A DNA stretch of 64,000 nt from Schmidtea polychroa (lineage: Eukaryota): assembly GCA_044892525.1 (NCBI GenBank), contig CM097886.1:141112001-141176000 (forward strand), written 5' to 3'. The position numbers and the translations under genes are program-made. Positions within the stretch are counted from its first letter, which is position 1; each line of letters begins with the position of its first letter. Below the pieces are notes generated by a model, which made no database searches, was not told the DNA's origin, and worked only from the letters and a program-made list of their open reading frames with translations. Below are positions 21,761 through 62,135 of the stretch, in pieces.

Positions 21761-22574
21761 TGTTGGGTTTTGGATTATTTTAAGTCGGTTCTCTCTGACT
21801 CCTGTGTTCTTTAAATCAAACAATGAACGACCCAACGTATATTGAAACAACAGGTTCACAATTTATTATCACGCTACAATTACCAATCAAAGTTTTATAC
21901 GATTCTCCGCTCGGCGTTGATGCTTTGCAAACAAATAATATTCACCTTTTGATCCTTTAGCTTCTCTCGATTCACGTCTTCCTCGGTTTCTGTTTGGTTT
22001 GATTCCTTGTCACCTCTCCGTATTCTTAATTCTTTTTCTTCTTTTCCCTACTTTCCTAATTCGTCTACCAACTTTTCCTACAGTCTGATTCTTCGAACCC
22101 TAGCTGAGGCAGAATGCCGATTTTCTCTGATTTTCTCTTTGCTTATATACTCCTCGAAATCAGGATGACAAATGGTTATTGCCGAGCCAATCTTTCGTTT
22201 GACATTTTCTCGTACGTGTTTGCTTCGGCTGTCACCCATAATGGTCCAACGAATCCAGATAATTAATGGCCCTACCGGTCTTCCTACGCGCGCTATCTTC
22301 TCCTTACTCTTCCCATTAATCATTGTGTCAAGCTAATGGGCCCAAATCTTCCTTTTGTTTGCCTTTCTTCTTGTTTATCCAGCTCGGGTTTCCTTTATCT
22401 CTCGGGTTCTCCATTGGCTCGGGTTTCCCATTAGCTCGGGTTTTCCATTAGCCAATTAATTAATTAATTAACGTTTTCTGTTTTCATACGTTTGAATGTT
22501 TTTCGACCCTTCCTAACCATTTTCTGATAAATCCCTAATCATCATCTTGTTGACCATTAGCTAATCTATACCTG
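21761..22574. mobile_element. LTR-like segment (third family) that was the target of the giant element; continues at 52751-52946
   Basis: Begins TGTTGGG directly after a TA run and is split by the CCTG TSD. Confidence 0.4.
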
Positions 22575-25500
22575 TGTTGGGGTTACACCTCGGCTGACCA
22601 CTCTACCATGTTGACGGGTCTAAGGGTTGATTGTCCATCTCGAATAAAAGGTGCCACCGATTTGTCAACCTGGAGTGAAACCCCACATAACTTTCTTCCA
22701 ACATAGTGCCCGTGAATCACTTCACGTTGGTACTGCACTATGCAGGCGAGACGCCAGCAAGCAGGTGAGCTTCTGCCTTAAAACTACTCCTTGCTGAGGC
22801 CTCGACTTCCCGTTCACGACTGCCGATAGAAGGGCTTACGTCCATTTCCTTACACAACCACTTATCAGGACTCGCTGAATGCAAAGTGGGAATTTCTCAC
22901 TAGATCTTGCGGGTTCTCTACTCAACCCACTTAATTAAAGTCTAATTATTCATGAACGAAGACGTGTAAGACAACAAGATTTATTAATTTCAATGTTATG
23001 ACACAAGGATTCAGCTGTACACTTTACTAACGTTTGTCGAAAGAAGAGAAAACATCATAATCAACATAGATCGGATCCTTGTTCCTCATCCTGACCGCCA
23101 CTGGGATTTTATTGTTTCTCCCATTCAGTGTCGGCGAATAATTCGTCGAGGTTAAAAAACTCGGAAGCGTTCTCTTCCCACATTACGCCAGCGGCTGATA
23201 TGATTCGTGCCGAGGGTCCCGTTGTTAGGTCGATGGACACGTGAGAGTTGCCACCGTTGGTTGAGTCCTCTATTGATGGGATGTTTGGCTTTGCAGTAGC
23301 GCGCTCGCGCTGTCTCTTCTTGCGCTCTGCACGAGAGAGTTGTTTGCGCTTGGGTTTGCTTGAAGATGCCACTTGCAGAAGGGTGACTGATACAGATGGA
23401 CTAGCAGTGGGGGGCTTACTGGTACCCGTGATGACAACATCTGGTCGCTTGGGGGACAATTCGGTTTCGACGCAGTCTCGGCACGGTCTCTTGAACGGTG
23501 AGTTGGATTCGAGGAACGGTTGTGATGAGGCGGAAAGATGTCATCGGCCTCTCGGATGGGAATTTGCACTATTTTCCGGGTTGTAGCCGCCTGCACGTAA
23601 ACCTTATGCAGTGCCTCGGATTGTTCTCTGATTAGACTTCTTTGGGCACGGCTCTCAGATATTAGCGCGTCCCGGCAATGCTCGCTACGATCGAGCTTCT
23701 TTTGGATCTCTTTCATCCGAGCGGGACTAAACCATGTCCCTTCCAGCTCGTCTATCTTCCTCTTGTAACGTCCAATCTGAGTTTGTAGGTCCTTTATCAC
23801 CGTATTTTTATCCGCGCACGAGAAGCACGGCCGTAATGCTGATTTAGTGGTTGGTAGCATGCTTGCTATAAATAATACTAATGAAATGTAGAACATACGA
23901 TTTTAGAATAAATTAGATACGACCTACGGCCATTCGTGGATGCTTGACCGACGAAAAAAAAAAAAGGAAAACTCATTCTACAATCCGGTTTTACCACGGA
24001 TCTTATTTGTTGAAACAATTTATTTAACCAAATGCCATCGGTTTGACGCATGCTATTAACTTTGACTCTCTATTGATCTAACTGTATACATGAGGGGCGT
24101 AATAATTAATAGGGGGTAAATATAATATTGGTGAAACACTATAATAATGCTTTAGTAGAGGGACATTATAGTATGCGACTACACCTTGCTATAAATTATC
24201 TATTTAAATTTATTGCAAACAAATTACTATCGCTATTCTCAACATATTTTTTGATTCGAAATTTGTTATTGGAAGTGCACTTTTAATTCGGTAGTGAATG
24301 TGATTATCTATATTGTCTACCATTTGTCTGAGAATATGTGATGAGTTTACATCAGCCATTACTTGAACACCCTAATGGGATATCTCATCGGTCATAACAC
24401 ATGTCCAAATTTACGGATACTACTGTCGACTAGTTGATTACATTATCGACCTATTGTGAATGTCACGTGTCGCGACTATTATGTATGCTAGTCTGATATT
24501 TTGTGCTCTCACCACATGGATTCGCGTATGGCTACTATCTTATCTCACTCACTTGGTGTATGCCATTTTCACGGTGATTTTATCGATCCTGCTGTCGTAT
24601 GATTTTCTCTGCACAGTGATTTATTTGAGTTATGATTTATGCTACCGCCAGTTCTCATCGCGGAATTTTACCCTTATCAACTTGTGTGAATGACCATCAT
24701 CGTTTGGAAATTTATTGGATCTTTTCAGTGATCGTCGAGGGAATAATGCTACCAAATACTGAAGCATATTACTACTCTCGTCATTCTACTCGGATTTTCC
24801 TATTCAGATGTAATGCCGTCTCGATGAAACCTGCCCTTAGCCATTCGAAATTTTCTCTCAGGTTCAATAATTTGGATATATACAGTGATGACCTGGCTCT
24901 TATTGTAGAAATAAATGTTATTAATTAAATTTGGTGATATTTTACCTGTTTATAATTTTTGAAATAACTAAGTCTATAAAAACTTTCTGATTATAATACT
25001 AGAGAGGTTTTCGTAGAATCTCGCATTTTATAGTTTCGAGTTAGTTAAAGTTTTTAGAATACTTTCGTAACTTGACATACAATCTGGACAGGTTAGATGA
25101 CATTGGGTCTATGATAACGGAATTTCATACGAAATTAGTTCTACTGAGTCCGGCAAATAGACGTTGTCGCAATTAATTTGATAAAACCATGTTTCCAGAT
25201 GAAGTGTACTATGAGATGTTGTTATTTTTGACGAAGTTCACTAAATCGTGGTCTGGATCTCTTTTTTCAATAGGGGTAAGATTTACGAAAACGACTTGAC
25301 GAAAGAAAAAGGAATGCGACGCCCTCAGTCACTGTGCAAATCCTTGAAAATCCCTTCATTCGTACGACTATCTCTGTGAAAATCATTGTCTGCCAGCGAT
25401 TCTTTTAACCATGACCCCTTGTGATAATTTAGTCGCATCTTCAGCGATAGGACCCGTGAAGAAGCCTTCACATTTCGGCCCAATCTAGCTGCGTGATTGA

Positions 25501-26445
25501 AACACTCCATGTCCACCGGCTGAGCTCCCGAAGGCACCTCATACCATGACATGGAGTATCTCAACTCCACGTTACTCGTTAAATGAAAATTCATAAAATC
25601 TTTAATTCAAATAAAATACGGACATCTGGATAAAAATATTTTATTAATTCTGAAATACTTAGATAATACAAATTCCATCAATACATTAAAGTTATAAAAA
25701 TGGAGAATCAAATGAAGAGAGTTAACCAAAATGTTTAATCGTTAATATTTACCATTACTATTAGCTTTACAAATACTTAAATAAATCTATAAACAAATGA
25801 ACTACCCCTTACTATTGTTTAGGCTGAGTCAAAATTCAATGTTGTTCGTTCCAAATAGTTTGAATGGTGGTCCGTTGGATGTCGATTATTGTGATGAATG
25901 GTATTTCGGTCTCTGAACTGGTTTTGAATAGTCGTGGAGTTTTCTGAATGACGGTTGCTTGGCTAGTAGTGTCGATCCTATGAAATGCTCGGGGTTAACA
26001 GTAAAAACAGTAAACATTTTTCTTACCTATGAAATGCTCGGGGTTAACAGTAAATTTAATGTTTTTGGTAGTTGTATATATATCAAATTCTTATTTGTGC
26101 GGACCAATCAGAGTTGAGTACCGCTTATTTCTATTAATTTAATATAATTTTCTTGTTTTTAGGTTGTTTTTTCCTTATTTTCTTTATTTTTAATATGTTT
26201 TTCTATTTATTTCCTTAATTTCCTTATTATTTCTTGAATTCCTCTTTATTTATTTGTCAACTTGTTCTATTTTAATCTTTTCTTAATTTTATTTTTTGTT
26301 TTAATTCTTATGTCTTAATTATTATTTTCCTTATATCTTATTCTATTTTATTTCTGATTTTATTTATTTTATTATTATTTTTCTTAATGTTCTACTTCCC
26401 TACTTTCTTATTTCTCAACGATTAAATTCTCGACTCAGCCCAACA
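22575..26445 (-). repeat. 3' LTR (3871 bp)
   Basis: TGTTGGGGTTACAC...CAGCCCAACA. Differs from 48879-52750 by a 1-nt deletion at about 23510 and substitutions at about 23580 and 24913 (differences found by eye). Confidence 0.97.
23109..23896 (-). pseudogene. 3'-LTR copy of the LTR-encoded ORF, frameshifted
   Basis: Split into 208-aa and 116-aa ORFs by ggtgagttgg, versus ggtggagttgg in the 5' LTR. Confidence 0.85.
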
Positions 26446-26675: not shown

Positions 26676-27344
26676 TTATGAACTGTTAACCATTGATGCT
26701 TCTGCTGGCGGCTGTTGGTTGGTTTGGGTATTGATGTTGAGATAGGTCTGACTATTAGATTTCGGCTGGATTGGTTGATTACTCGGGGTTCGAGGTCGGA
26801 ATGGGGTTGGGTTAAGATTTGTCAGGGGCACTTCTTGAGGATTTTGGTTCGAGGTTACTCTTATTGATGTCGAGATTCTACATCTATTTCGAATTTCGTA
26901 AATTTTCATGAATATTGGTAGACATAGGAGGAGGGTCTCTGCGATCACCACATATATGAGATAATGGGTGTCATTGATCTCGGGAGGTGTTTTTGGCTTT
27001 TCTACAAGATTTTCAAAATCCTCTTGTTGCATTTGTTGTTCCAACTGGTCGATCTGTTGGCTTTGTTCGAAGATTTGTTTGTTTATCATTTTACAATTGG
27101 GGTTCTTTTTACACATTGTTTGGATGTTGTTGATGTGGGATCGGGTTGATTGAATGGTTTGGATGATATGGGTTTTCACGGTCATAGGGTATGTGCATTT
27201 GCCGGATTCTTGTTTAGGTTCTTGATTTTGATTGCGGTAATCTCGTACGATTTTCGGTTGGGCGTTTAATTGTTTGTTCTCCATCAGAATCATCAATACC
27301 ATCATTGTTATCATCATCTCGCCTCGCATGATACTATTATACAT
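26676..27344 (-). CDS. Element accessory ORF: putative type I membrane protein (222 aa)
   Basis: Hydrophobic N-terminus MMITMMVLMILM, Cys-containing helical ectodomain, TM-like YLIYVVIAETLLLCLPIFM and a Pro/Gln/Asn-rich tail. Confidence 0.7.
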   Translation of the reverse strand: MYNSIMRGEMMITMMVLMILMENKQLNAQPKIVRDYRNQNQEPKQESGKCTYPMTVKTHIIQTIQSTRSHINNIQTMCKKNPNCKMINKQIFEQSQQIDQLEQQMQQEDFENLVEKPKTPPEINDTHYLIYVVIAETLLLCLPIFMKIYEIRNRCRISTSIRVTSNQNPQEVPLTNLNPTPFRPRTPSNQPIQPKSNSQTYLNINTQTNQQPPAEASMVNSS

Positions 27345-27384
27345 TCATTATGTTTATTTACAATTGGTTTTAATGACCCTTAAT

Positions 27385-28137
27385 TTAATGGTTCTGATTT
27401 GGATTATTTTCACCGATTCTCATCAAGGTGGACTCTGCTTTAATTACCCTGTGTCTTAACTCGGGCAGCATTTCCAATTGTCGGTCTTTTTCACGGGCTT
27501 CTCTCTTTAGATGTCTAATTTCTTTTTCCAAGCGTCTAATTTCTTCCCTTTTCTTTTCAAGGTTTCTTTTTAGCTCGATTTGTAGGAGATCTTGTTCGTT
27601 TTCTTGCAGGTAATTTTGTTGTTGATGTTTTCTTTCTATTTCTCTATATTTGCGGACCCACTTCCTCATTTCTTTACTTTCCCGTTGGTTTTCTTCTAGT
27701 TGTCGTTTTAATTTATTTATAGCTGTTTGGCGCTCCTTCGCCTCAGTTTTCCAGTAGTCTTGGATTACCTCCTTTGCTTTGAAGCTTGCCCTCTCTTTCC
27801 ATAGCTCTTCCGCTATCTTTTCCCAGTTTTTCCCTCGCTTCCTTTGTTCGTGTAGCCATTCATTTTCCTCTTCCGTTTCTCTTTTTATTTCCCCCAACGC
27901 TTCGCACTCTTTCTTTAACACCTTTATCATTTTCCGGTCCTCCAGGTATTTGTTTATTAATCTTCCGTTTTCGTATTTCTCTTCCCGTAACTCGGCCTTT
28001 AGCGTTTGGGTTTCTGTTGTTTCTGCCTCAATCTCTCCCTCTTCTACGTCGCTCATAATTTCTATCGTTTCCTCGATTTTCATATCTATAATATGTACAG
28101 TTAATGGTGCGCTATAGTGCGACTTATACGTATACAT
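27385..28137 (-). CDS. Element accessory ORF: coiled-coil protein (likely start 28083)
   Basis: 250-aa ORF rich in E/K/R with heptad-like periodicity. Confidence 0.75.
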   Translation of the reverse strand: MYTYKSHYSAPLTVHIIDMKIEETIEIMSDVEEGEIEAETTETQTLKAELREEKYENGRLINKYLEDRKMIKVLKKECEALGEIKRETEEENEWLHEQRKRGKNWEKIAEELWKERASFKAKEVIQDYWKTEAKERQTAINKLKRQLEENQRESKEMRKWVRKYREIERKHQQQNYLQENEQDLLQIELKRNLEKKREEIRRLEKEIRHLKREAREKDRQLEMLPELRHRVIKAESTLMRIGENNPNQNH

Positions 28138-28251
28138 TGATATAAAATTTAATAGTTTGGGTTACAGTCCCTTGAATACTTTTACAATACTTTAATTTTT
28201 TTGTTTGGGATATACGTCCCGGTTTTTAGTTTTTCATCTTTTCATCCACCC

Positions 28252-29361
28252 TCATACGAAGGTTTCCTCCTGGCCTACATAACCTTCATCACTATCGACC
28301 GCGGGATGTAACTGTATCGCAATAGGGTCGTATGGTAGGTAATATTGGGGGATTTGAGCTCTCAATTCATTAATTTCGTCTCTTAGAGCTCGAGTGATGT
28401 TCAATTCCTCGTCGAGCAGATAGGTGAGATACCTTGTCTCTTCGTCTTTCGCCTCTATCTGTTTGTCTAGGGCCTTGATTTTCTCGTCGCCCTTCCATTT
28501 TTCAATTTCTATTTCTAAGTTTTTAATATTTTCGGTGTACATTTTCCTTTCGTTTTCTAATTTTCTGTTTTTTCCCGCTAGGACCATGTTTCTTTGTTCC
28601 AGCGATCCTTGTAATCCATTAAGGTCTCTTTTCATCTCTTCTACCTGATTTACTAATTCCACAACCCGTCCCGCTTGTTGGGTTATCATCTCTTCCATTG
28701 CGGCATTCTCGTGCTCTCTTATGTCGCACTTCATTGCCAAATGTCGCTCAAACTCCATAGCCTTTGTTTGCCAGGTTTGGCTTCGGGCGGCGACCTTTCT
28801 CAACCTTTTTAATTCTTCCTTTATTATTAAATTCTCCTCCCATTTACCTTGTTCGCTTTCATATCCGAGTCTCATGGGCAATTCTTTCATCTCTTTTTTC
28901 ATTTCTCTGTTTTGTCTTTTCCATTTTCTCGCTTCTGCCACTAAGTGCATCATTTTCCTGTCTTCTATTTGTTTTTCCGCTTCGCGCTTGGTGTTCTCAT
29001 CGGTAAGTCTTTTTCTCGCTTCCTGCACTAGCTGCTTTAAGTAGTGGCTGTGTGCTTCTTGGCGGGTATTTTCTAGTGACGCCCATTTTGATGCTCTTTT
29101 GCATGCTTCTGCTTCCGCTCTTAAGTTGTGTATTAACCATTGGTATTGACTATTCTCATCTTCTCTAGTTTCTTCGATGTGATTTCGGGTGAGATTAGTT
29201 AGTTGGAACATTACTTTGTTCCATTTTTTATTATGTTCTCGGGGAATTTGTGTCTTGTTGACATTGGTTGGGGCTATCGCAGTTTCGGTTATTTTCTCTT
29301 GTGTCATCTCTAAATCATAGACATCGATTAATCTTTTATTATGAAAAAGGAATTTATTCAT
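28252..29361 (-). CDS. Element accessory ORF: long coiled-coil protein (likely start 29307)
   Basis: 369-aa E/K/R-rich helical ORF. Confidence 0.75.
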   Translation of the reverse strand: MNKFLFHNKRLIDVYDLEMTQEKITETAIAPTNVNKTQIPREHNKKWNKVMFQLTNLTRNHIEETREDENSQYQWLIHNLRAEAEACKRASKWASLENTRQEAHSHYLKQLVQEARKRLTDENTKREAEKQIEDRKMMHLVAEARKWKRQNREMKKEMKELPMRLGYESEQGKWEENLIIKEELKRLRKVAARSQTWQTKAMEFERHLAMKCDIREHENAAMEEMITQQAGRVVELVNQVEEMKRDLNGLQGSLEQRNMVLAGKNRKLENERKMYTENIKNLEIEIEKWKGDEKIKALDKQIEAKDEETRYLTYLLDEELNITRALRDEINELRAQIPQYYLPYDPIAIQLHPAVDSDEGYVGQEETFV

Positions 29362-29499
29362 TATTTACTGTTTCTTGGGGAATTTTCGCATCATTTTTGG
29401 GTTTTCGTATTTAGGGTTTTCATACTATTATTATATAATATTTTATTGGTTATATACACCGATATATACAGATTATTATATACAACATTATTCGATTGG

Positions 29500-30888
29500 T
29501 TATTCCGTTCTACCCTTCTCCTCTTTCCTCACGGTCATCTTGATATATATGGTATCATTTCTCGCCATATCTTCCACTCTTTGTTGTGAGATGAACGTGG
29601 GTGCTCCTGTTGCTGATCCTTCTTCGTTGAGGGGCCTCTGGTAAGCTATTTGATTCCCCGTTGTTTTGAAGCTTTGCTCATGTATACTTTGGTTGTTCAT
29701 CAGAGTAATATCGATTTTTGCCTGGAACGGCCATTCTAATATTTCGTCGTATTCTCCTTTACATAACAGAAAGAAAATCGAAAAGTGCGTGTTTAATCCG
29801 GTTCCGTCCCCGTTGGGATATATCTTCATTTTCATTTTGTACCCATTTTTCCAAGAGTGGAATGTAGGACTTGTTATTCTTGTCTCTTCTCCGGTTTTTG
29901 CTTTTCGTATTCTTTCTTTTACTCCCGTTATTTTCCATATGTAGGGTGCTGTTGGGGTTATCTCATTTAGATTTATTTCCCGTATTTTCTGATGTAGCTC
30001 CTTGGCCTGATTATTACTGATTTCTGTTCGGTTTATTTGCATCTTTATGTTTGCTCGGGCTTCTTCGAACGCTTTCCTTTCTTCTAGTAGTTCTTTGACT
30101 AACACTTTCAACGATGTTATCTCTATCTCCATTTGTTTTACTTTCTCTTCGCTTTCTTGTAACGCAGTCGACCACATTTCTGCGTGAGTTGAAGCATTTT
30201 CTACTAAATGATGTGGTAACTCACCTCGGTGTAGTAATTTCTGACAACCCCATCTACCTAGTACACATGTCATTCTTTTCTTTTCGCATTCCCTTAGATG
30301 CTGTGCCACCTTCATTATTTCCCCTTGGTTACATCCGTTTGGGCATTCCCCACTGAACTCCGCACATACTCTCTCCTCTTGGACATTGTGATGTTTGAGG
30401 GTGAGATTTATCCACGTATCTATTTCTCCACAGTGTTCACATCTTTCTAATCTCTCTTCACACTGCTTTTGATGTTCTTTCTCTTCGCTTGCTCGAATGG
30501 TTTTATGGCACCTTTCACACTGGCCAATTCTGTACATACATTCTCCCATATGTTGTACTACCTTCCATATTACTCCTTTCCATTCGCATGGGGCATTTTT
30601 GCATCCCAGGTTGGTGTTTAACATGTCTTTCACTGCGGCTTTATCCTCGTTAGTGTCTTCTAAACTCGATATTAGTGTCTCTTTACACACCGGGCACCTC
30701 TGTGGTCTATTCTTTATTGCTTCACTGATACATTCTTTACATACTCTGCATCCACATTGCGTTTGGTGAGGTTCCTTTAACAGCTTTTCACATATTCCGC
30801 ACGTAACATGTTTGTGTATTCTGATCGTTGTAGATTTTCGGACTTGCTCGACAATCTCTCTGAACTCTTCTCTTTGTCGTTTATCCAT
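29500..30888 (-). CDS. TRAF: TNF receptor-associated factor (TRAF2/3/5-like), full length, carried by the retroelement
   Basis: N-terminal RING (CGIC...CGCRVCKEC...CPVC), TRAF zinc fingers (CKNAPCEWKG...HMGEC; CPNGC...HLREC), coiled coil and MATH domain (YIWKI, SPTFH, GYKMKMKIYPNGDG, HFSIFFLLCKGEYDEILEWPF, DTIYIKMTV). No introns. Confidence 0.93.
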   Translation of the reverse strand: MDKRQREEFREIVEQVRKSTTIRIHKHVTCGICEKLLKEPHQTQCGCRVCKECISEAIKNRPQRCPVCKETLISSLEDTNEDKAAVKDMLNTNLGCKNAPCEWKGVIWKVVQHMGECMYRIGQCERCHKTIRASEEKEHQKQCEERLERCEHCGEIDTWINLTLKHHNVQEERVCAEFSGECPNGCNQGEIMKVAQHLRECEKKRMTCVLGRWGCQKLLHRGELPHHLVENASTHAEMWSTALQESEEKVKQMEIEITSLKVLVKELLEERKAFEEARANIKMQINRTEISNNQAKELHQKIREINLNEITPTAPYIWKITGVKERIRKAKTGEETRITSPTFHSWKNGYKMKMKIYPNGDGTGLNTHFSIFFLLCKGEYDEILEWPFQAKIDITLMNNQSIHEQSFKTTGNQIAYQRPLNEEGSATGAPTFISQQRVEDMARNDTIYIKMTVRKEEKGRTE

Positions 30889-30973
30889 TCTATAATTATA
30901 TGTACAAATAGTTCTTATCGATACAGGTTCGATATTTTATTTACAATTATTTACATTTTAAGCTAGGTTTGGT

Positions 30974-43400: not shown

Positions 43401-45348
43401 ATTTCTCCTCGTTTGGTATTAGATCTTTCTCGTTTCTTTCCAATTTCATCACTTTTTGCACGAATCGCCTGAATGGTATTACGTCGATGAACTCTTGGTT
43501 CCTCACTACTACTGGGAGTATTTCGGCTACCTGTTTTATCGCTTCCTCCCTTGCTTTTCTCAACTTTATTTCGATATCTTCGTCTTCACTTTCACTGGTT
43601 ATCTCGTTTCCGCTTTCTTCCTCTTTGATTTCCCCTTTTGGGGGTTCGCTTATTTCATTCGGCTGTAGTATTTCTCCACCCAAACTACTTACATAATCTT
43701 CTTCTTCGTCTGACGATGCTACATCTTTTGTCCTTTTCATCATATTGATTTGCAAGTTTCTCATCCTTGGTACTTTCTTTAGTTTCTTTCTTTCGAATAT
43801 TGTTGTTTCTTCTGGTTCTGATTCTTGTAGCATTTGGTGGTTTAGTTGACTGGTTTGTTCCTTGCTCTTGTTATTTTCATCTTCTGTCTCGGTTTTCGCT
43901 TTATTATGTTCTTTTTCGATTTTATCCTTCATCTTTTTCCAGAATATTTTCTGAATTCTCTGGTTTCCTTTTAAAATCGTGGTTGAATTCTCTGTTTTCA
44001 TTTCCGTTGTTATTTCTTTTACCTTTTCTGGTTCAGTCATGGGTACTACCCTTGGGCTTTTCCCGTAATTGTAGCAATACTGGCTCTTCATGTCTTTTAC
44101 TAACCTCATCATATTTATTCGCAATGGTTGTTCTTGTCGTTGTTGGTTGCGTTCTTGTTTTATCCTCTCTTCCTCGGCCTGTAGCCTTTGCCCTTCTTGT
44201 ACATGTTGATGCACTTCATAATTGTTGAGATTTTCGGTACTCCTCATCATACGTATATTCTGGGTTTGTTGTGGTGCTGATTCTTGTCTTGGTCTCATCA
44301 TTTGCTGCATCATCTGTTTCATCTGCGAAATTTCCTGCATAACGTTCATTTGTTTTCCTTCGTTAGGGTTACTTTGTCGTTGCGGATTCGCTATATAATT
44401 ATTATTTCGCTGTGGTGGTCGTTGTTGTTGGCCCCTTTCTCGGCAATCTCTGGAGATGTGACCTGGCTGACCACAGTTAAAACAGCCTCGCAATTGGCAT
44501 ACATTTTCGGTATGTCCACGCCGTCCGCAACGATTACAATTTGAATTTCTATAACAATCTCTGTCCCAGTGTCCTGGTTTACCGCATGTTCGGCACTGCT
44601 TGTTATCGTTCATATTTCGCCGATTATTGAAATTGTTCTCATTATTCGGGTTGTTACGATTACCATTATTCCCGTTTGATCGTCCTTGTGGTGGTTTGAA
44701 AATTTGGTGCGCTCCTGGTATAAATTGATTCATTTTCGGTTCTTGATTGTTGTTATCTCCGTTATCCGCTTTCGCTATTGCTGTCGCTATCCTTCCCTCC
44801 TCTTGCATAATATTCATTTGAGCTGGAAGGTGGAGCTCGCATCTCGTAGCCCAATCTATGGCTTCCTCTAATGTTTTGCACATTTGACAACCTACTGAGG
44901 CTCTTACTTCTTCTCGGCGTAATCCCTCTATGAAATAACCAATCAGATTTTCTTCGGGTAATTTTCCATTCATTGCTTTCTTCGCTAATCTCCGCAATTC
45001 ACTGGCATATAATGTTATCGATTCGTTTGCTCTTTGTTTCCTATTTGCTAGTTCGCCCAACGCCTGGTTGATTGGCTTACTGGCTCCGAAGGTTTTCTTC
45101 AGGAATGTTTTAATATCTTCCCACTTTTCTAATTTCGTGTCTCTCTCTTTAGCTTCTAAATATACCTCTAATGCACTATCGCACAAAAACAACGGCATCC
45201 TTTTACTAATTGCTTCGGGTGTCCATCCACACACAGTGATATAAACTTCAAAATTAGTTATGAACGTTGCTAGCTTGTTTGCATTTCCGTTGAACGGTTC
45301 TCCTCTGAACTTCTCTTTATACTCGTCGGTTTTTACGACATTCGTCAT
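31495..45348 (-). CDS. 4617-aa Gag-Env-Pol-ankyrin polyprotein
   Basis: Single ORF containing Gag CA and three CCHC knuckles, UBL-like and Bcl-2-like segments, a glycoprotein, protease (IDTGA), RT (PFGL, YIDD), RNase H (TDAS, EREA, TDH), integrase (HHCC, DDE, GPY), ankyrin repeats and a TM. Confidence 0.97.
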   Translation of the reverse strand: MTNVVKTDEYKEKFRGEPFNGNANKLATFITNFEVYITVCGWTPEAISKRMPLFLCDSALEVYLEAKERDTKLEKWEDIKTFLKKTFGASKPINQALGELANRKQRANESITLYASELRRLAKKAMNGKLPEENLIGYFIEGLRREEVRASVGCQMCKTLEEAIDWATRCELHLPAQMNIMQEEGRIATAIAKADNGDNNNQEPKMNQFIPGAHQIFKPPQGRSNGNNGNRNNPNNENNFNNRRNMNDNKQCRTCGKPGHWDRDCYRNSNCNRCGRRGHTENVCQLRGCFNCGQPGHISRDCRERGQQQRPPQRNNNYIANPQRQSNPNEGKQMNVMQEISQMKQMMQQMMRPRQESAPQQTQNIRMMRSTENLNNYEVHQHVQEGQRLQAEEERIKQERNQQRQEQPLRINMMRLVKDMKSQYCYNYGKSPRVVPMTEPEKVKEITTEMKTENSTTILKGNQRIQKIFWKKMKDKIEKEHNKAKTETEDENNKSKEQTSQLNHQMLQESEPEETTIFERKKLKKVPRMRNLQINMMKRTKDVASSDEEEDYVSSLGGEILQPNEISEPPKGEIKEEESGNEITSESEDEDIEIKLRKAREEAIKQVAEILPVVVRNQEFIDVIPFRRFVQKVMKLERNEKDLIPNEEKSSIKNYMEKMKQADTTRYVIKIGTSRGLERMWIKNTVTDELFDWIREHLGRSRKKEYLYQYQGEQIKPDMHLVDALIWPGETQILKLHKEKQPANLYDWAKDAKAEYDFNIKLKLEQIKQCTLRRNLDKLIKQIQEQVEDNWDLLITRRAPAMYELMSRLRDTEMLRMSDWRTINLIHKYGRLKETQPQRLEITIWLPNEEKRRIKMSNQSTVDDLVSKINQEITEKVRSESSDGMVDDVVMMYDKIILRTEDDTSLSEMGMWDNHQIIRIVPMDEFRTRDVTYQKEIRDRMKTLYRKSTEIIEIHQQWLKEKELQGKITKLNTRSCRRTPWERVWNAESKEWEIRKGTFVETDIGETESESEEEEEEPPEYEEEARGQTSDDESETDVTSESENEARHIHAMRKKEREYADMDGEEATEAREREETERYKQLGDILAMGAKNQKRQVVALANIILKTSENIHNLRGMAKAIEEYRQYNEWYPEQLEQIIRKWRNQEWAQDTQERYHIRIKYPDKSIEELEVHPTTKIRELKKKLAYETPFHLQLFGKSLDDNADVGITPMRLEETNVLTMAETLGKPLKRKSKIIKPTKGSLSTPSPNKAPSKSNETEEVEEIILEDSDDESGERSPLLVRWPTGAEMWTNNQPSTSYQQPTKLNIKEIIDNTTETETDEQFQKQREPTKVTPESQTDKIIDEWNEWLRNNDSSLPRTDNERNPNYENTREAGTMMEKRAKGRPKKQGEKSEFKTKEQLKQEQGQVRLEKLDKIVWDLKEAQPTIERGEKWIRELLKDMLIITNPQLRRLWQRKVASTEARQLWHTISGIIPKLIKEKTKTTKTDWDETKRVIEQLTTNANDDEHHLVVITYLMYNLMGLAARKIPNKQFANHVEMTVSIIENTIEPHIIRAGGWKRLIQAPRKNEQERSMQVRLKKLLNELEWELPMKDPASRKASINSLMMTMMIWMLCTSGATGFTIYDCDNMIMRDKYSLRDIEECRQASPNKLDIVRTKVTYHVYQESDFIRTQARECVVSKKVLAYYCGQYSYSTLILPGLDKEIVSIQREDCKELFRTGALKMHNGVTIHGQTGMIKTESVYVSGKVKSSDGSCNGGTYTIRGEVISGVVVIESYTVELKEYEAQFDANNYQMKTNPACRATENVCRTGVSTIIYEANTQKCRLQLLKSALFNEVKGEIYENENDEDGNDRVRMRNGKPMPPSPREKRLSTQKTPTALITDDPDLGMRFIKEKETTKCDSIVYKTNYAGIYMSRQIIDRAVGKIATEDVKLYLYANNKMDFLFHRGQTTLQKVYYDLIQNDCSLNKEILKTKLAIAITHPDNTMPSLPLPDGHFGRMVGEVMYTYQCTKTYARMPEKSILPEKRCANELEIRYKGQNRFVQPVTRIMNPVGFYPNLFNCSNAYGPLYERPDGKWMMLPGKTISEEPKKFGLIELATELDFKPIDVSNGGMYSPEDLETARLNVLFPARRESILSNMVTITGGTNYQSGPNYELLLSPDHFQQATSNMMKAMWGRFLVFGQMMAGILGIILIIQIVRVILTQMLACFDIYKREKKVNWKMIVGFLPFLAKTMVLHGHSKDIHRIKRLIKILTKIKGTDEEVGRRFRKVMYDEATRRQLKKNKPKFLDRFRSQSSNSDSDDDDNGNDKCLYPNRNPNEKPMETAPYWEKEKTNTWIANGSYIPPDIVGPQTALTMTQNMYPQLPSQPGMHYMPTRRTKSVDQADDVRTIAAMSLPGGPAVTVMIQINGKETNAMIDTGANVSAIAINQIPSKHWKDIESTTIHIIACSKETVDVVGRWWTTLRYQDNEIETYLAVIPKLSVPCIIGTDLMPELLKEVVIDLTTMCLKDKTGRICKMNAVIRCPEKIIVPAKSQMICQIKVDTGMEGEVIFEPSKSFEKRRELPLAREIITINQEGVIPLNITNFEEEDKIIYENEKLGRLTPMMDIELPKVTNEMIKDDELWTIDSMLLTNDEKKKLHRLLVEYKDIFAISDLDLGTCDVTLHAIPLIDETPIALRPYKLAEMQKEIAETEVQKMLDAKVIEPSCSPWQFPVVMVKKKDGTQRFCIDYRKLNAVTKRDTYPLPDINEMLLMLQGAAYFTSLDLKSGYWQIKVKDEDKEKTAFTLGRDLYQFRKMPFGLTNAPASFQRCMNFVTHGIKQCMVYIDDLLIYSATFEQHLEDIRNVFIRLRQWKLKLKPSKCDWAKEKVTFLGHIVSAKGKEPDPRNIEKIKTCPAPKTVTQVQEFLGLCGYYRKFIKNYAGIAKPIQELVKKDISFIWEKEQQQAFETLRDKLIEAPILVHPDFKKPFLLATDASGYAAGAILGQLDDEGKERVIGYYSRTFKKHEKNYSVTEREALAIIQAIKHFRYLLWGHEICITTDHQPLVWLGQHKEASSRLMRWAMQLQEYSPFIKFKAGRANANADCMSRFIFPDLVDSEMQRICLIVAEDLDFCQLRKDQQEDAELKQIIDYVKTGKTDVYAKDQKLKEHMDKHRHRYIIEKDWLLIMDGEKRLMCIPENRRKELLTQYHDGRLGGHMSSKKTLARMKQKYFWPTLTEDVTEWVKNCLTCATRKNTGSKWKAPLTPMPVPIEPMTMISMDVVGPLPESDKGNVYILVITDFLTKFPEAFAMPDQKAKTIAKILVEEICCRYGTPKQILTDQGTNFMSEIMSEVTNYFKIAKLRTSPYHPQTNGMTERFNGTLIQMLSNYVDRHQRDWDEYINLCLMAYRMSIHASTKMSPFKLMYGRECNMPMDLEYQPPISQYMEIDDYVTKFKERMQEIWETAGLNIKFYQESYKDLHDRKKNVKQHTFQTGDWVMIETPELIPGTTKKLQRNGKGPYEILFVGETNVRVKLVNNPFTRPIYVNVARCKSIPKTATSQPEGRTLTTRSQTYRMNMMQQLAEPITGRLGIQPSEAEKIVKEVKIKIPGWAKDRLDFEILGGLLTMIENYANRERTHPLLRVVKSQWPILFTITDHYGDTPLHKLMKVGNNEQILETIEAFHDCKRSTEQTNNQGYTPLMIAANRGKTKDIITALLDTGSKITTQDHERKNALHHAIEGRSTEAFTSLMELLSYEDNREVGNMYDGLLTAIKEKLTTITGILITWRNPIRNDYMINVNEAFTRGENTLMREAMKGHQLFEIPNQLLERGIKFTNHKDEQLAKKRIDTFEKSLFQFTNQVRNKYWETVSVLYMMDTMNNIRENYLNIIQILTAEERINNPNGKKTKIRYEKSRESKSTTNQTVTNNVIETKSMSIDQEAIIRKAKEVFFEEMLELPDEIILSKIIKTVHTYARDQTTDLDIGKIKTFLPRAFTMVTKDSRTPLQQAILAAKENRAITIVRILGEMGEETNTKNEQGETAMMYAAITKIHPKTLHILHQSGSKLDEKSNEGNSTLDWATIQPNLEMIRFICKNATKEEVENMCKNTSQFQWNTVRKNLEAMKLLLTWRVPQNNKYAINVNEFYENGENAMVKNTLTKGGTPKIILIVLNREDLKFTQNQNEQQRIGKHRRMQLRELVKEWNRKRHAATGRKEFEFEAKLARNRVLTAYRRLLNDINVEDDILNDSGGDKHDDNNGKGRKEDKEKREQEEGKPENKDSDTKREGNSPGTKTKEEEKPNNGKQRVCLPFTNKEIETNMILMIIMLTMIELVTAHGGTRTIKETKEAENQDSKEDELKQEKKKQAQEQQWDLKEEWDLKERCILGRCMSRAYQKLVLINEDTEPITEVRIQEAYRNRDGKRITNVKGKEVHLGKGGEVAITQLQPRKEHKVCISRLGPGERCHQYVTQQQPPKEYTVCIWRNESKRECRRYPGKRGKKRKNHDEKNEGGKHKKTGEEAQDNYVSEEEMEKIQKMAKEGMNEEIARIREMMKGNGKRGNEKSTEAISTLTNKEKPESISVKQMMWISGIIITGAFLIITGGTIKIIKDKRHRGELEMTRIRNFQHRVKRPSDIKQEQWVEAWNVQRPPNSRI
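33165..34480 (-). other. Ankyrin-repeat region of the polyprotein (two clusters)
   Basis: GDTPLHK, GYTPLMIAA, KNALHHAI; RTPLQQAI, GETAMMYAA, GNSTLDWAT. Confidence 0.85.
34810..38160 (-). other. pol: Pol region: aspartic protease, RT, RNase H, integrase
   Basis: DTG at about 38115, YIDD at about 36895, TDASG at about 36450, H-H-C-C zinc finger at about 35690-35810, D-D-E core and GPY at about 34880. Gypsy domain order. Confidence 0.97.
38640..40560 (-). other. env: Envelope glycoprotein domain (chuvirus/gB-like, class III fusogen type)
   Basis: Signal-like LMMTMMIWMLCTSGATG followed by FTIYDC, YSLRDIEEC, ECVVSKKVLAYYCG, DCKELF, DGSCNGGTY, and C-terminal FGQMMAGILGIILIIQIVRVIL. The Cys spacing resembles chuvirus-like glycoproteins known from invertebrate retroelements. 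Confidence 0.8.
44443..45310 (-). other. gag: Gag capsid-like domain and three CCHC zinc knuckles
   Basis: LFLCDSALEVY...RKQRANESITLYASELRRLA...YFIEGL; CRTCGKPGHWDRDC, CNRCGRRGHTENVC, CFNCGQPGHISRDC. Confidence 0.95.
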
Positions 45349-46659: not shown

Positions 46660-47470
46660 GACTGGCTGGCAGCTCAATCTTCTTCTCAGCTCAATCTTCT
46701 TCCTTCTGATCGGTTAGACTATTCAACAACTCGATCTTACGACTGGCTGGCACTATTCAACAGCTCAATCTTCTTCCTTCTGATCGGTTGGACTATTCAA
46801 CAACTCGATCTTACGACTGGCTGGCACTATTCAACAGCTCAATCTTCTTCCTTCTGATCGGTTGGACTATTCGACAACTCGATCTTACGACTGGCTGGCA
46901 CTATTCAACAGCTCAATCTTCTTCCTTCTGATCGGTTGGACTATTCAACAACTCGATCTTACGACTGGCTGGCACTATTCAACAGCTCAATCTTCTTCCT
47001 TCTGATCGGTTGGACTATTCAACAACTCGATCTTACGACTGGCTGGCACTATTCAACAGCTCAATCTTCTTCCTTCTGATCGGTTGGACTATTCAACAAC
47101 TCGATCTTACGACTGGCTGGCACTATTCAACAGCTCAATCTTCCTCCTTCCTGATCGGTTGGACTTTTCACAACTCGACCTTACGACTGGCTGGCACTAT
47201 TCAACAGCTCAATCTTCCTCTTTCCTGATCGGTTGGACTTTTCACAACTCGACCTTACGACTGGCTGGCACTATTCAACAGCTCAATCTTCCTCCTTCCT
47301 GATCGGTTGGACTTTTCACAACTCGACCTTACGACTGGCTGGCACTATTCAACAGCTCAATCTTCCTCCTTCCTGATCGGTTGGACTTTTCACCACTCGA
47401 CCTTACGACTGGCTGGCACTATTCAACAGCTCAGTCTTCCTCCTTGACCGGCTGGATTATTCGACAGCTC
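46660..47470. repeat. 74-bp tandem array (about 10 copies plus partials) in the element leader
   Basis: gactggctgg recurs at 46741, 46815, 46889, 46963, 47037, 47111, 47185, 47259, 47333 and 47407. Confidence 0.97.
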
Positions 47471-48050
47471 GGCTTCAATATTCCTTGCTCTGCATGCTTC
47501 TATTTCTCTTTTCTTCTTTTACTCTAGTTTACCATTTTCTCTGTCTACTTTTAATTTGTCGACTTAATCTTTACCGCTTGGGAGTGTTTCCCCTTTTCCC
47601 CCCTTGCTCAAAACGCACGACGATCGCGATGATCCATTTCTACATTGGCATGGTGATCAGTCATGTCGCAAAAACTTCTCATCATATGCGATGGTACCCC
47701 GCCCTACGCTTCTTACTTGGGTTGATCAGTTATCCCCTCCCAACGGGTTCTTGCAATAAGACGTACCGCCCGAAGGTGGCTCGGTTTGTACCCCTGCAGT
47801 CTATATTGGGACTAATTCCACGTTATTCCACCCTCTCTTCATTTGATTCCAAAAAAAAAATAAAACAAAACAAACACGCAAATATTCATTCGTCATGCAA
47901 ATTTTATTAGTCCTAATCATCAAAACTTTTTAAAGACGAATTTATTTATCATAAACATAAAGATTGAATCATTAACAGTACGTGTTACCTCAACAATTTC
48001 ATGCATTCTTGTTCAAACATCGTATACTTGCTGTTACATCGCCGGCCGTT

Positions 48051-48536
48051 TCATTCGCCATAATAGACCATATGGGTCTCTTTTATTTCATATTTGCACA
48101 TCGTGCATCTTTTTAGGTCTTTTACACACTCTTCACAGTGACTGAGGTGTCCACACGGCAAGAATAATACGCGAATAGGACGGAGTTTGCAGGCTATACA
48201 AGTTCGTAATTGGTTAACTTTTTCCTGTATTTTTTGTTCGATTGCATCTGGTATTGTATTTAGTGAGTCTTTTAGACGCTGATAATCTAGATTTAATGTT
48301 GGGTGGTTCAATCTCTCTTGATACCACTGATATACGGTTTCGGGGTTTATTTTTCCATCTGGGCGACTTAGGCCTGTGGCTAATATCATATGATTAGGTA
48401 CGACTGGTGTTTGTCCGATTGCTTGCAGTAATATCGCGTTGATTTTTTCTCTTTTATGCGTCAGTGTTGTTAGGGAGTCGTTTTCTATATCGATAAACTT
48501 GAGCAGTTGTTGCATTTGGTTCGCGAATTCTGTCAT
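48051..48536 (-). CDS. IAP/MDM2-type C-terminal RING finger protein without BIR (161 aa), upstream of gag
   Basis: CIACKLRPIRVLFLPCGHLSHCEECVKDLKRCTMCKYEIKETHMVY at the extreme C-terminus, matching the IAP RING pattern (C..C....v.F.PCGH..C..C...l..CP.Cr..I). Confidence 0.85.
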   Translation of the reverse strand: MTEFANQMQQLLKFIDIENDSLTTLTHKREKINAILLQAIGQTPVVPNHMILATGLSRPDGKINPETVYQWYQERLNHPTLNLDYQRLKDSLNTIPDAIEQKIQEKVNQLRTCIACKLRPIRVLFLPCGHLSHCEECVKDLKRCTMCKYEIKETHMVYYGE

Positions 48537-48853: not shown

Positions 48854-48871
48854 ATCCCGGCTGAGCCCCCA
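48854..48871 (-). promoter_or_regulatory. Primer-binding site, tRNA-Pro type
   Basis: Minus strand TGGGGGCTCAGCCGGGAT versus the canonical tRNA-Pro PBS TGGGGGCTCGTCCGGGAT (16/18), 7 nt inside the 5' LTR boundary. Confidence 0.8.
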
Positions 48872-49412
48872 AAAATCATGTTGGGGTTACACCTCGGCTG
48901 ACCACTCTACCATGTTGACGGGTCTAAGGGTTGATTGTCCATCTCGAATAAAAGGTGCCACCGATTTGTCAACCTGGAGTGAAACCCCACATAACTTTCT
49001 TCCAACATAGTGCCCGTGAATCACTTCACGTTGGTACTGCACTATGCAGGCGAGACGCCAGCAAGCAGGTGAGCTTCTGCCTTAAAACTACTCCTTGCTG
49101 AGGCCTCGACTTCCCGTTCACGACTGCCGATAGAAGGGCTTACGTCCATTTCCTTACACAACCACTTATCAGGACTCGCTGAATGCAAAGTGGGAATTTC
49201 TCACTAGATCTTGCGGGTTCTCTACTCAACCCACTTAATTAAAGTCTAATTATTCATGAACGAAGACGTGTAAGACAACAAGATTTATTAATTTCAATGT
49301 TATGACACAAGGATTCAGCTGTACACTTTACTAACGTTTGTCGAAAGAAGAGAAAACATCATAATCAACATAGATCGGATCCTTGTTCCTCATCCTGACC
49401 GCCACTGGGATT

Positions 49413-50201
49413 TTATTGTTTCTCCCATTCAGTGTCGGCGAATAATTCGTCGAGGTTAAAAAACTCGGAAGCGTTCTCTTCCCACATTACGCCAGCGGCT
49501 GATATGATTCGTGCCGAGGGTCCCGTTGTTAGGTCGATGGACACGTGAGAGTTGCCACCGTTGGTTGAGTCCTCTATTGATGGGATGTTTGGCTTTGCAG
49601 TAGCGCGCTCGCGCTGTCTCTTCTTGCGCTCTGCACGAGAGAGTTGTTTGCGCTTGGGTTTGCTTGAAGATGCCACTTGCAGAAGGGTGACTGATACAGA
49701 TGGACTAGCAGTGGGGGGCTTACTGGTACCCGTGATGACAACATCTGGTCGCTTGGGGGACAATTCGGTTTCGACGCAGTCTCGGCACGGTCTCTTGAAC
49801 GGTGGAGTTGGATTCGAGGAACGGTTGTGATGAGGCGGAAAGATGTCATCGGCCTCTCGGATGGGAATTTGCACTATTTTCCGGTTTGTAGCCGCCTGCA
49901 CGTAAACCTTATGCAGTGCCTCGGATTGTTCTCTGATTAGACTTCTTTGGGCACGGCTCTCAGATATTAGCGCGTCCCGGCAATGCTCGCTACGATCGAG
50001 CTTCTTTTGGATCTCTTTCATCCGAGCGGGACTAAACCATGTCCCTTCCAGCTCGTCTATCTTCCTCTTGTAACGTCCAATCTGAGTTTGTAGGTCCTTT
50101 ATCACCGTATTTTTATCCGCGCACGAGAAGCACGGCCGTAATGCTGATTTAGTGGTTGGTAGCATGCTTGCTATAAATAATACTAATGAAATGTAGAACA
50201 T
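49413..50201 (-). CDS. LTR-encoded 262-aa protein of unknown function
   Basis: Hydrophobic N-terminus, CFSC and CRDC pairs, coiled coil, basic KPKRK...RKKRQRER stretch and acidic-aromatic C-terminus. A diverged homolog at 5744-6257 supports coding function. Confidence 0.75.
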   Translation of the reverse strand: MFYISLVLFIASMLPTTKSALRPCFSCADKNTVIKDLQTQIGRYKRKIDELEGTWFSPARMKEIQKKLDRSEHCRDALISESRAQRSLIREQSEALHKVYVQAATNRKIVQIPIREADDIFPPHHNRSSNPTPPFKRPCRDCVETELSPKRPDVVITGTSKPPTASPSVSVTLLQVASSSKPKRKQLSRAERKKRQRERATAKPNIPSIEDSTNGGNSHVSIDLTTGPSARIISAAGVMWEENASEFFNLDELFADTEWEKQ

Positions 50202-52379
50202 ACGATTTTAGAATAAATTAGATACGACCTACGGCCATTCGTGGATGCTTGACCGACGAAAAAAAAAAAAGGAAAACTCATTCTACAATCCGGTTTTACC
50301 ACGGATCTTATTTGTTGAAACAATTTATTTAACCAAATGCCATCGGTTTGACGCATGCTATTAACTTTGACTCTCTATTGATCTAACTGTATACATGAGG
50401 GGCGTAATAATTAATAGGGGGTAAATATAATATTGGTGAAACACTATAATAATGCTTTAGTAGAGGGACATTATAGTATGCGACTACACCTTGCTATAAA
50501 TTATCTATTTAAATTTATTGCAAACAAATTACTATCGCTATTCTCAACATATTTTTTGATTCGAAATTTGTTATTGGAAGTGCACTTTTAATTCGGTAGT
50601 GAATGTGATTATCTATATTGTCTACCATTTGTCTGAGAATATGTGATGAGTTTACATCAGCCATTACTTGAACACCCTAATGGGATATCTCATCGGTCAT
50701 AACACATGTCCAAATTTACGGATACTACTGTCGACTAGTTGATTACATTATCGACCTATTGTGAATGTCACGTGTCGCGACTATTATGTATGCTAGTCTG
50801 ATATTTTGTGCTCTCACCACATGGATTCGCGTATGGCTACTATCTTATCTCACTCACTTGGTGTATGCCATTTTCACGGTGATTTTATCGATCCTGCTGT
50901 CGTATGATTTTCTCTGCACAGTGATTTATTTGAGTTATGATTTATGCTACCGCCAGTTCTCATCGCGGAATTTTACCCTTATCAACTTGTGTGAATGACC
51001 ATCATCGTTTGGAAATTTATTGGATCTTTTCAGTGATCGTCGAGGGAATAATGCTACCAAATACTGAAGCATATTACTACTCTCGTCATTCTACTCGGAT
51101 TTTCCTATTCAGATGTAATGCCGTCTCGATGAAACCTGCCCTTAGCCATTCGAAATTTTCTCTCAGGTTCAATAATTTGGATATATACAGTGATGACCTG
51201 GCTCTTATTGTAGAAATTAATGTTATTAATTAAATTTGGTGATATTTTACCTGTTTATAATTTTTGAAATAACTAAGTCTATAAAAACTTTCTGATTATA
51301 ATACTAGAGAGGTTTTCGTAGAATCTCGCATTTTATAGTTTCGAGTTAGTTAAAGTTTTTAGAATACTTTCGTAACTTGACATACAATCTGGACAGGTTA
51401 GATGACATTGGGTCTATGATAACGGAATTTCATACGAAATTAGTTCTACTGAGTCCGGCAAATAGACGTTGTCGCAATTAATTTGATAAAACCATGTTTC
51501 CAGATGAAGTGTACTATGAGATGTTGTTATTTTTGACGAAGTTCACTAAATCGTGGTCTGGATCTCTTTTTTCAATAGGGGTAAGATTTACGAAAACGAC
51601 TTGACGAAAGAAAAAGGAATGCGACGCCCTCAGTCACTGTGCAAATCCTTGAAAATCCCTTCATTCGTACGACTATCTCTGTGAAAATCATTGTCTGCCA
51701 GCGATTCTTTTAACCATGACCCCTTGTGATAATTTAGTCGCATCTTCAGCGATAGGACCCGTGAAGAAGCCTTCACATTTCGGCCCAATCTAGCTGCGTG
51801 ATTGAAACACTCCATGTCCACCGGCTGAGCTCCCGAAGGCACCTCATACCATGACATGGAGTATCTCAACTCCACGTTACTCGTTAAATGAAAATTCATA
51901 AAATCTTTAATTCAAATAAAATACGGACATCTGGATAAAAATATTTTATTAATTCTGAAATACTTAGATAATACAAATTCCATCAATACATTAAAGTTAT
52001 AAAAATGGAGAATCAAATGAAGAGAGTTAACCAAAATGTTTAATCGTTAATATTTACCATTACTATTAGCTTTACAAATACTTAAATAAATCTATAAACA
52101 AATGAACTACCCCTTACTATTGTTTAGGCTGAGTCAAAATTCAATGTTGTTCGTTCCAAATAGTTTGAATGGTGGTCCGTTGGATGTCGATTATTGTGAT
52201 GAATGGTATTTCGGTCTCTGAACTGGTTTTGAATAGTCGTGGAGTTTTCTGAATGACGGTTGCTTGGCTAGTAGTGTCGATCCTATGAAATGCTCGGGGT
52301 TAACAGTAAAAACAGTAAACATTTTTCTTACCTATGAAATGCTCGGGGTTAACAGTAAATTTAATGTTTTTGGTAGTTG

Positions 52380-52413
52380 TATATATATCAAATTCTTATT
52401 TGTGCGGACCAAT
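52380..52413 (-). promoter_or_regulatory. Putative LTR core promoter (CCAAT box plus TATA-like box)
   Basis: CCAAT at 52409-52413 and TATATATAT at 52380-52388, in the correct order for minus-strand transcription. Mirrored at 26104-26108 and 26075-26083. Confidence 0.4.
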
Positions 52414-52946
52414 CAGAGTTGAGTACCGCTTATTTCTATTAATTTAATATAATTTTCTTGTTTTTAGGTTGTTTTTTCCTTATTTTCTTTATTTTTAATA
52501 TGTTTTTCTATTTATTTCCTTAATTTCCTTATTATTTCTTGAATTCCTCTTTATTTATTTGTCAACTTGTTCTATTTTAATCTTTTCTTAATTTTATTTT
52601 TTGTTTTAATTCTTATGTCTTAATTATTATTTTCCTTATATCTTATTCTATTTTATTTCTGATTTTATTTATTTTATTATTATTTTTCTTAATGTTCTAC
52701 TTCCCTACTTTCTTATTTCTCAACGATTAAATTCTCGACTCAGCCCAACACCTGTCCCGTTTTTCCCATTCGATTTCGATGATTTTTCCATTTATTGATT
52801 TTTCTCGGATTTCCGGATTCTCGCCTTTCGTAATTGCTTTTTGCATTTTCTAATACTGTTTCCATCACACTTTCCTTTACTATTGATTCTGTGCGCAATC
52901 CCGCTTTTATTTGTCTTTTTTTCTTCGCTTACTTTCTATTTGAATT

Positions 52947-58206: not shown

Positions 58207-58282
<76 letters not shown>

Positions 58283-62077: not shown

Positions 62078-62135
<58 letters not shown>

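Follow-up and report, generated by a model that had tools for sequence, protein, structure and literature searches.

An intact, recently inserted 30-kb LTR element of probable Burro type in the planarian Schmidtea polychroa

Results

The stretch analyzed here (the window) comprises 64,000 nt of contig CM097886.1 of the Schmidtea polychroa assembly GCA_044892525.1 (positions 141,112,001 to 141,176,000). It holds a long terminal repeat (LTR) element that lies on the minus strand, measures 30,176 bp without its target-site duplication and has an internal region of 22,433 bp, 83% of which is coding. Coordinates are positions in the window, and the features of the element are on the minus strand throughout.

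Self-BLAST of the window returned a single direct repeat of 3,872 alignment columns (22575-26445 versus 48879-52750) with 99.923% identity. Its two arms are the 3' LTR (22575..26445, 3,871 nt) and the 5' LTR (48879..52750, 3,872 nt), both of which start with TG, end with CA and have a terminal inverted repeat of 7 bp. Global alignment finds three differences between them (near 23499, 23580 and 24913), of which two are substitutions and the third an indel of a single base. Repeat comparison and inspection of the target site found the duplication CCTG on the 5' side (52751..52754) and on the 3' side (22571..22574), directly at the LTR ends; a 5-bp duplication does not fit. The primer-binding site, 18 nt long and of tRNA-Pro type (48854..48871), lies 7 nt from the 5' LTR. 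Compared by eye with the tRNA-Pro rows of the table in PMC13524379, its 12-mer has one mismatch to the dipteran row and two to the hymenopteran one. The 5' leader also contains a 74-bp tandem array of 10.6 copies (46687..47471). An earlier note, made from the sequence alone, had described an intact 30.2-kb element with TG...CA LTRs of 3.87 kb and about 99.9% identity, a 4-bp CCTG duplication, a primer-binding site and a 13.85-kb open reading frame (ORF) without a stop, and these points are all borne out by our measurements.

The element is real and intact. It contains no N, and the first N gap begins at 52947, 193 bp beyond its right end. The proximity of this gap, and the known difficulty of assembling Burro elements (planarian retroelements of about 30 kb), would be in line with an artefact in which LTRs or flanks were mis-joined among near-identical copies. 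We consider such an artefact very improbable, because the 4-bp duplication matches at the exact LTR ends, the two LTRs are not identical, the primer-binding site is in place and 13.85 kb run without N or stop. Element and flanks showed no similarity to each other at the nucleotide level (E ≤ 1e-3), Rfam had no match within the element, and ARAGORN predicted no tRNA across the window.

LTR divergence was K = 5.2e-4 (2 substitutions in 3,871 nt). With the S. polychroa mutation rate of 1.31e-8 per site per generation (PMC10899757), the insertion is some 20,000 generations old or younger (95% range 2,400-71,000). This figure is an upper bound, since errors of the reverse transcriptase or of the consensus would add differences between the LTRs. 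Dating by LTR alignment thus agrees with the earlier description of the insertion as very young.

The largest coding unit is a Gag-Env-Pol polyprotein encoded by one ORF of 13,854 nt and 4,617 amino acids (31495..45348; ORF list and Pfam), in which the order of Pfam domains is Gag, CCHC knuckles, Monjiviricetes fusion glycoprotein, protease, reverse transcriptase (RT), RNase H (RH), integrase (IN) and ankyrin repeats. Gag (44440..45348; Pfam) has three CCHC knuckles, at aa 252, 271 and 289. The aspartic protease (37885..38160; Pfam and catalytic motif), the RT and RH (36169..37221; Pfam and catalytic motifs) and the IN (34876..35847; HHCC, D-D-35-E and GPY; Pfam and motifs) retain all their catalytic motifs, including the D-35-E spacing of the IN. 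A domain-sized spacer separates protease from RT. Two ankyrin-repeat blocks follow at 33160..34425 (Ank_2, E 3e-16 and 3e-9).

Accessory domains between Gag and Env are less distinct. One weak ubiquitin-like domain is found at 41668..41880 (Pfam E 0.004, below the cut-off; PDB ubiquitin variant E 0.027), and two more putative ones lie around aa 660-750 and 835-925. A weak BCL2-like segment immediately precedes Env (40684..40902; Pfam Bcl-2 E 0.03, below the cut-off); it had no match in PDB and no significant match in nine relatives. A short hydrophobic motif occurs six times in the polyprotein versus 0.53 times in shuffles, a count that refers to a motif defined after the sites were seen. Looser versions of it are present at both protease borders, at the RH/IN border and after IN. 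Judging from this placement, the repeated motif probably marks protease sites.

Env lies in frame between the BCL2-like segment and the protease (38731..40566), and consists of an internal signal peptide, an ectodomain with 14 cysteines of the class III (gB/chuvirus-like) kind and a transmembrane helix (Pfam PF24664, E 1.6e-66). The cysteines are invariant (14 of 14) across 16 aligned sequences, relatives being only 27-42% identical, and a signal-like segment stands ahead of Env in 14 of the 16 sequences that the search pattern matched. At the sequence level Env had no match among PDB sequences. Its predicted model (pLDDT, the predicted local distance difference test, 71) was matched by Foldseek to herpesvirus gB in PDB (E 5e-14) and to glycoproteins of chu-like viruses in BFVD (E 5e-34). 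Env is therefore a class III fusogen.

Relatives were collected by a length-restricted search, which listed 120 of the 157 matches found among 4,305 candidates. Among the matches listed, the same fusion domain is present in at least 16 relatives, and no Burro sequence appears. For the RT-RH tree, the 111 of 120 matches with enough coverage were thinned to 49 at 80% identity, giving 50 rows, and the element was sister to 14 Gag-Env-Pol relatives (support 96/74). These 14 polyproteins from environmental contigs (within P0063-P0090) resemble that of the element in having a single Gag-Env-Pol ORF, with 47-51% identity over RT-IN, and differ from it in being shorter (2,627-4,057 aa). One or two extra aspartic-protease-like domains occur after Env and/or IN in P0066, P0067, P0072, P0074, P0078, P0082, P0084 and P0088, and ankyrins stand between Env and protease in P0063; cargo changes place within the clade. 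P0086, a Gag-Env-Pol polyprotein labelled as a protein of a Flavobacteriaceae metagenome-assembled genome, most likely reflects eukaryotic contamination of that bin.

By hydropathy, the C-terminus of the polyprotein (31495..32508) forms a second predicted membrane protein, with a signal-like segment at aa 4281-4304, an ectodomain and a transmembrane segment at aa 4545-4572. The same arrangement of signal, ectodomain and transmembrane segment after IN recurs among the relatives: of 15 examined from the 16 env-bearing matches, 13 had at least two hydrophobic segments after IN and a 14th had one. In the relatives these ectodomains are FN3-like or Ig, and the ectodomain of the element matched none of them. 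The Ig match came from P0090 (E 1.5e-5). A profile of the FN3-like ectodomains matched FN3 receptors in PDB (48 sequences with E ≤ 10, led by neogenin at 2e-4), with a selection bias, as it was built from nine stretches picked for their FN3-like motif; no member of the nine matched Pfam FN3. An FN3 fold for the ectodomain of the element, suggested by eye, was not borne out: the profile of the relatives scored P0001 no higher than 500 shuffles, and hhalign of the ectodomain against it gave a probability of 0.08. For the same ectodomain a PDB search returned two chance matches, the single-sequence model reached pLDDT 37, the Atlas gave no usable match, and no relatives were found among 1.84 billion representatives. 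Our best guess is that the second membrane protein is an attachment or immune-modulating surface protein.

Six further ORFs share the strand of the polyprotein and have similar base usage. One, upstream of the polyprotein and 161 aa long (48051..48536), ends in a RING of the IAP type (Pfam zf-C3HC4_3, E 4e-11; best PDB matches the BIRC3/BIRC2 RING, E 2e-10), and no BIR pattern was found on the coding strand of the element. Downstream of the polyprotein follow a 119-aa ORF (30974..31333; ORF list) and an intronless, full-length TRAF of 462 aa (29500..30888) with RING, zinc fingers, coiled coil and MATH (Pfam MATH E 2e-27 plus RING). The best PDB matches of the latter are TRAF3/1/2 (E about 5e-28), and a homolog search returned one protein from 3,260 candidates. 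Two coiled-coil-like ORFs of 369 aa (28252..29361; ORF list, Pfam scan) and 250 aa (27385..28137; ORF list, Pfam and NCBIfam scans), and a 222-aa ORF for a probable small type I membrane protein (26676..27344; ORF list, hydropathy), complete the set. The LTR itself contains an ORF of 262 aa (49413..50201; ORF list) with CxxC, a coiled coil, a basic stretch and an acidic C-terminus, which is open in the 5' LTR and frameshifted near 23499 in the 3' LTR. It had no meaningful match in Pfam, NCBIfam or the Atlas (best Atlas score 0.80, no family). A divergent, frameshifted homolog at 6236-5900 on the minus strand (42-46% aa identity, E 9e-18) indicates that it is a conserved gene and that positions 5900-6236 are a relic LTR of another Burro-type family. 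The composition of the LTR ORF would suit a transactivator-like protein. The earlier note had missed the in-frame env, the LTR-encoded ORF and the six accessory ORFs of the internal region, and had not remarked on the polypurine tract that is missing before the 3' LTR (see below).

The six spacers after the polyprotein and the 3' ORFs total 768 nt. Ten sense TGTA[ACT]ATA sites fall in four of them, versus 0.56 expected from dinucleotide shuffles, none of 2,000 of which reached ten. They lie within 27355..31481 on the minus strand (starts 31481, 31448, 31349, 30955, 30945, 30906, 29484, 29470, 29458 and 27362). One antisense site was counted and none in the 13.85-kb ORF, and the flanking DNA has a density of 0.18 per kb. 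Among degenerate 8-mers of the spacers the motif ranks first. It is identical to UGUAHAUA, the response element of Pumilio (PMC12441121), and stem cells both express and need a planarian Pumilio (PMC1896013). The 3' accessory genes would probably be expressed from subgenomic mRNAs, with the short spacers serving as 3' untranslated regions under Pumilio control. A competing explanation, tentative but falling not far short of an even chance, is that the motif serves each accessory gene as an internal promoter of TATA-like type or as a UGUA signal for cleavage and polyadenylation. Consistent with this, the commonest 7-mer of the spacers is TATATAA (seven copies), AATAAA/ATTAAA and 17 sense TGTA are present, and in a selection-aware control some AT-only degenerate 8-mer reached ten in 16 of 1,000 shuffles. 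No degenerate 8-mer containing G or C exceeded six in that same control, however, four of the ten sites read TGTAAATA or TGTACATA, neither of which is a TATA box, and G never occurs at the variable position, which is A, C or T just as the published Pumilio consensus has it (PMC12441121).

On the plus strand, 4.75 kb from the 5' LTR, starts a gene for an SLC37-type sugar-phosphate exchanger (57500-63747). Over seven exons, 232 of 247 residues (94%; counted by eye) are identical to S. mediterranea, which is too divergent for one species given a split between sexual and asexual lines of about 0.4 million years (PMC13309565), and by itself points most likely to another Schmidtea or a close dugesiid as host. 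One exon had its best match in S. mediterranea (98% over 58 aa), followed by flukes at 56-68% (12 matches from 16 candidates). A nematode host, which the short introns had brought to mind, was rejected on these matches. An intron of this gene contains a hAT fragment (62396-63181) and an inverted-repeat element (59371-60287). At the left end, an open gag ORF with several CCHC knuckles (1-1551, minus strand) runs off the window; its match to P0083 (37% identity, E 1e-68) marks it as another family within the Gag-Env-Pol clade. This family has its own repeated hydrophobic motif and a 91%-identical partial copy at 17.1-17.9 kb (17069-17569, minus strand). A decayed gag relic at 10550-11080 (minus strand) is weakly similar to the clade (E 6e-5). 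Overlapping ORFs of 551 and 198 aa (18935-21123, plus strand) resemble, by eye, a frameshifted DNA transposase; the former had no Pfam or NCBIfam match and the latter no Pfam match. An inverted dispersed repeat, 84% identical between 8452-9217 and 55961-56692, is probably a small DNA transposon. The immediate flanks of the element (21900-22570 and 52755-52946) are, like the element, purine-rich on the minus strand, the left one with 17-bp tandem repeats, a composition which may mean that the leader of an older retroelement was the site of insertion.

Discussion

The order protease-RT-RH-IN, the intact catalytic motifs, the TG..CA LTRs, the short target-site duplication and the tRNA primer-binding site place the element in Ty3/gypsy (Metaviridae). 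Within this group the closest description is that of Burro, an element of over 30 kb with a single ORF of 4,873 aa that encodes Gag, three CCHC, MATH, ubiquitin-like, BCL2, an in-frame mononegavirus-like Env and protease, and then a dUTPase-like domain, RT, RH, IN, BIR and ankyrins (PMC6431247, section 7). Burro1/GYPSM1 and Burro-2 to -4 of S. mediterranea and a Burro-like element of D. tigrina share with ours a size of about 30 kb, one giant ORF, a planarian host, a three-CCHC Gag, an Env in frame between Gag and protease, ankyrins, MATH/TRAF and tandem repeats (PMC6431247). The element is filed as Burro-type because its domain order matches that description and its host is close to S. mediterranea. 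The suggestion of the earlier note that it was possibly Burro-related can thus be raised to Burro-type. Set against Burro by published description, the element very probably belongs to the Burro group and works like a Burro. We conclude that a dugesiid planarian here likely harbours an autonomous Ty3/gypsy element of Burro type that was inserted recently, a "Gag-Env-Pol errantivirus" with an env, and that the element operates by the mechanism proposed below; its identity and classification, taken by themselves, are held with high confidence.

Plant Ogre elements are also large and have LTRs of several kb. Their internal region is 11-13 kb and lacks env (PMC6431247), in contrast to 22.4 kb with env here; the planarian host, the env and the larger internal region exclude membership in Ogre. 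Burro1 itself is likewise excluded: the element has no BIR, its TRAF is a separate gene, and its ORF encodes 4,617 aa versus 4,873 in Burro1 (and 5,140 among published Burro elements; PMC6431247). TRAF position differs in all three cases, being downstream of pol as a separate full-length gene in our element, inside ORF1 in Burro1 and upstream in D. tigrina (PMC6431247). Burro1 has a BIR+RING gene (B-IAP), reported to protect stem cells (Lee 2026, as cited in PMC13465017), whereas the element has RING without BIR. The third TRAF position and the loss of BIR show the anti-apoptotic cargo to be modular from one family to the next. Section 7 of PMC6431247 makes no mention of three features of the element, namely its LTR-encoded ORF, its spacer motifs and its second membrane protein.

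Six S. mediterranea GAG-ENV-POL elements with a gB-type Env, Smed_errantivirus_1-6, have been catalogued (PMC13524379), and share with ours the Gag-Env-Pol order and a clearly alignable Env. They are listed without LTR or primer-binding site ("none"), both of which are defined here. Env domains I-II match none of the six: counted by eye, Smed_errantivirus_5 is closest with 101 of 180 positions (~56%), followed by _6 with 84/180 and the 215-copy _2 with 65/180, while numbers 1, 3 and 4 were inspected and not counted. By this measure the element appears to represent a family distinct from those six. The main text of PMC13524379 has no occurrence of Burro, ankyrin, fibronectin or polyprotein. It is nevertheless conceivable, if unlikely, that the element is a copy or ortholog of a described family, be it Burro-2, -3 or -4 or a member covered by the 2026 cross-species Burro survey. 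Burro-2 to -4 have the same ankyrin, MATH and BCL2 motifs (PMC6431247), and an expansion of Burro across Dugesiidae and Geoplanidae has been cited (PMC13465017). What speaks for a separate family, besides the Env comparison with the six S. mediterranea rows (three of them counted by eye), is that the flanking host gene and its S. mediterranea counterpart disagree in 15 of 247 aa, and that Burro1 combines BIR with a MATH inside its 4,873-aa ORF, in contrast to the separate 3' TRAF gene and missing BIR of the element.

Several observations weigh against the Burro-type, Gag-Env-Pol assignment. No polypurine tract was found before the 3' LTR, the last 15 nt having seven purines. Such a tract is a usual, not strictly defining, feature of Ty3/gypsy elements, and a short hairpin that is not purine-rich occupies the expected place (26446-26485, minus strand). 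A dUTPase-like domain was not detected, with no Pfam or relevant PDB match, the Burro call having been made with HHpred. The BCL2-like (E 0.03) and ubiquitin-like (E 0.004) matches sit where Burro has these domains, ahead of Env, but lie below Pfam cut-offs, and the missing BIR leaves the tested anti-apoptotic module of Burro1 incomplete. Support of 96/74 for grouping with the Gag-Env-Pol relatives is below the starred level, the tree held no named reference, so that likeness to Burro draws on descriptions, and the window contains one copy of the element.

Replication most likely follows the standard gypsy cycle. tRNA-Pro would prime reverse transcription of an RNA of about 26 kb, and the product would integrate with duplication of 4 bp at the target. 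As Env shares the reading frame and brings a signal and a transmembrane segment of its own, the polyprotein must thread through a membrane. Signal peptidase would then act at the two internal signals to yield Gag, a membrane-anchored Env and the second surface protein. Cleavage at the Env signal would free Gag with the accessory domains, and Pol would stay on the cytoplasmic tail of Env until the protease of the element cuts at the recurring short hydrophobic motif at domain borders. Enveloped particles would then probably bud and pass from cell to cell. Going by the functions of their families, the TRAF, RING, BCL2-like and ankyrin products could interfere with death and NF-kB signalling, and most likely dampen the signalling of cell death and innate immunity in the stem cells of the host, as reported for the IAP of Burro1. 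Taken together, we give the processing, infectivity and Pumilio steps about an even chance.

One alternative is that the element transposes inside cells only, and that Env and the second membrane protein are kept for tethering, particle assembly or by inertia. A 1:1:1 output of Gag, Env and Pol is unusual for an infectious particle, and direct evidence of virions was not found in the accessible text of PMC13524379 and PMC6431247. We regard this as a doubtful but substantial possibility. The signal, transmembrane segment and all 14 cysteines of Env are nonetheless kept across relatives that are only 27-42% identical, and the predicted fold is that of gB, which implies that purifying selection maintains the fold of a fusogen.

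For Burro, both the giant size and an envelope gene in frame have been published before. What the present element adds is a further family represented by a copy that is young and intact, in which the boundaries, the primer and the cargo can be made out cleanly. A search of the Burro literature, two main Burro papers being outside our reach, gave no report of the spacer motif, the second membrane protein or the LTR ORF. Likewise, those two papers aside, a full-length TRAF downstream of pol and an IAP-type RING without BIR were undescribed in the texts reached. Some of these features may be in print already.

A broader and rather improbable reading joins these features, and would make Burro-type elements endogenous viruses in the full sense, which are enveloped, live in planarian stem cells and enter cells by means of two proteins. 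In it, a gB-like fusogen and a variable, post-integrase attachment protein of FN3/Ig type would both be cut from the polyprotein by signal peptidase, and Pol would reach the particle on the cytoplasmic tail of Env and not as Gag-Pol. The 3' cassette would consist of captured survival genes, the full-length TRAF among them, which clusters of Pumilio sites adjust to the state of the stem cell, and the LTR-encoded protein would be a transactivator. Planarians are reported to have 99 TRAF/MATH transcripts (PMC6109357); if this reading were true, part of that TRAF expansion would be cargo of such elements.

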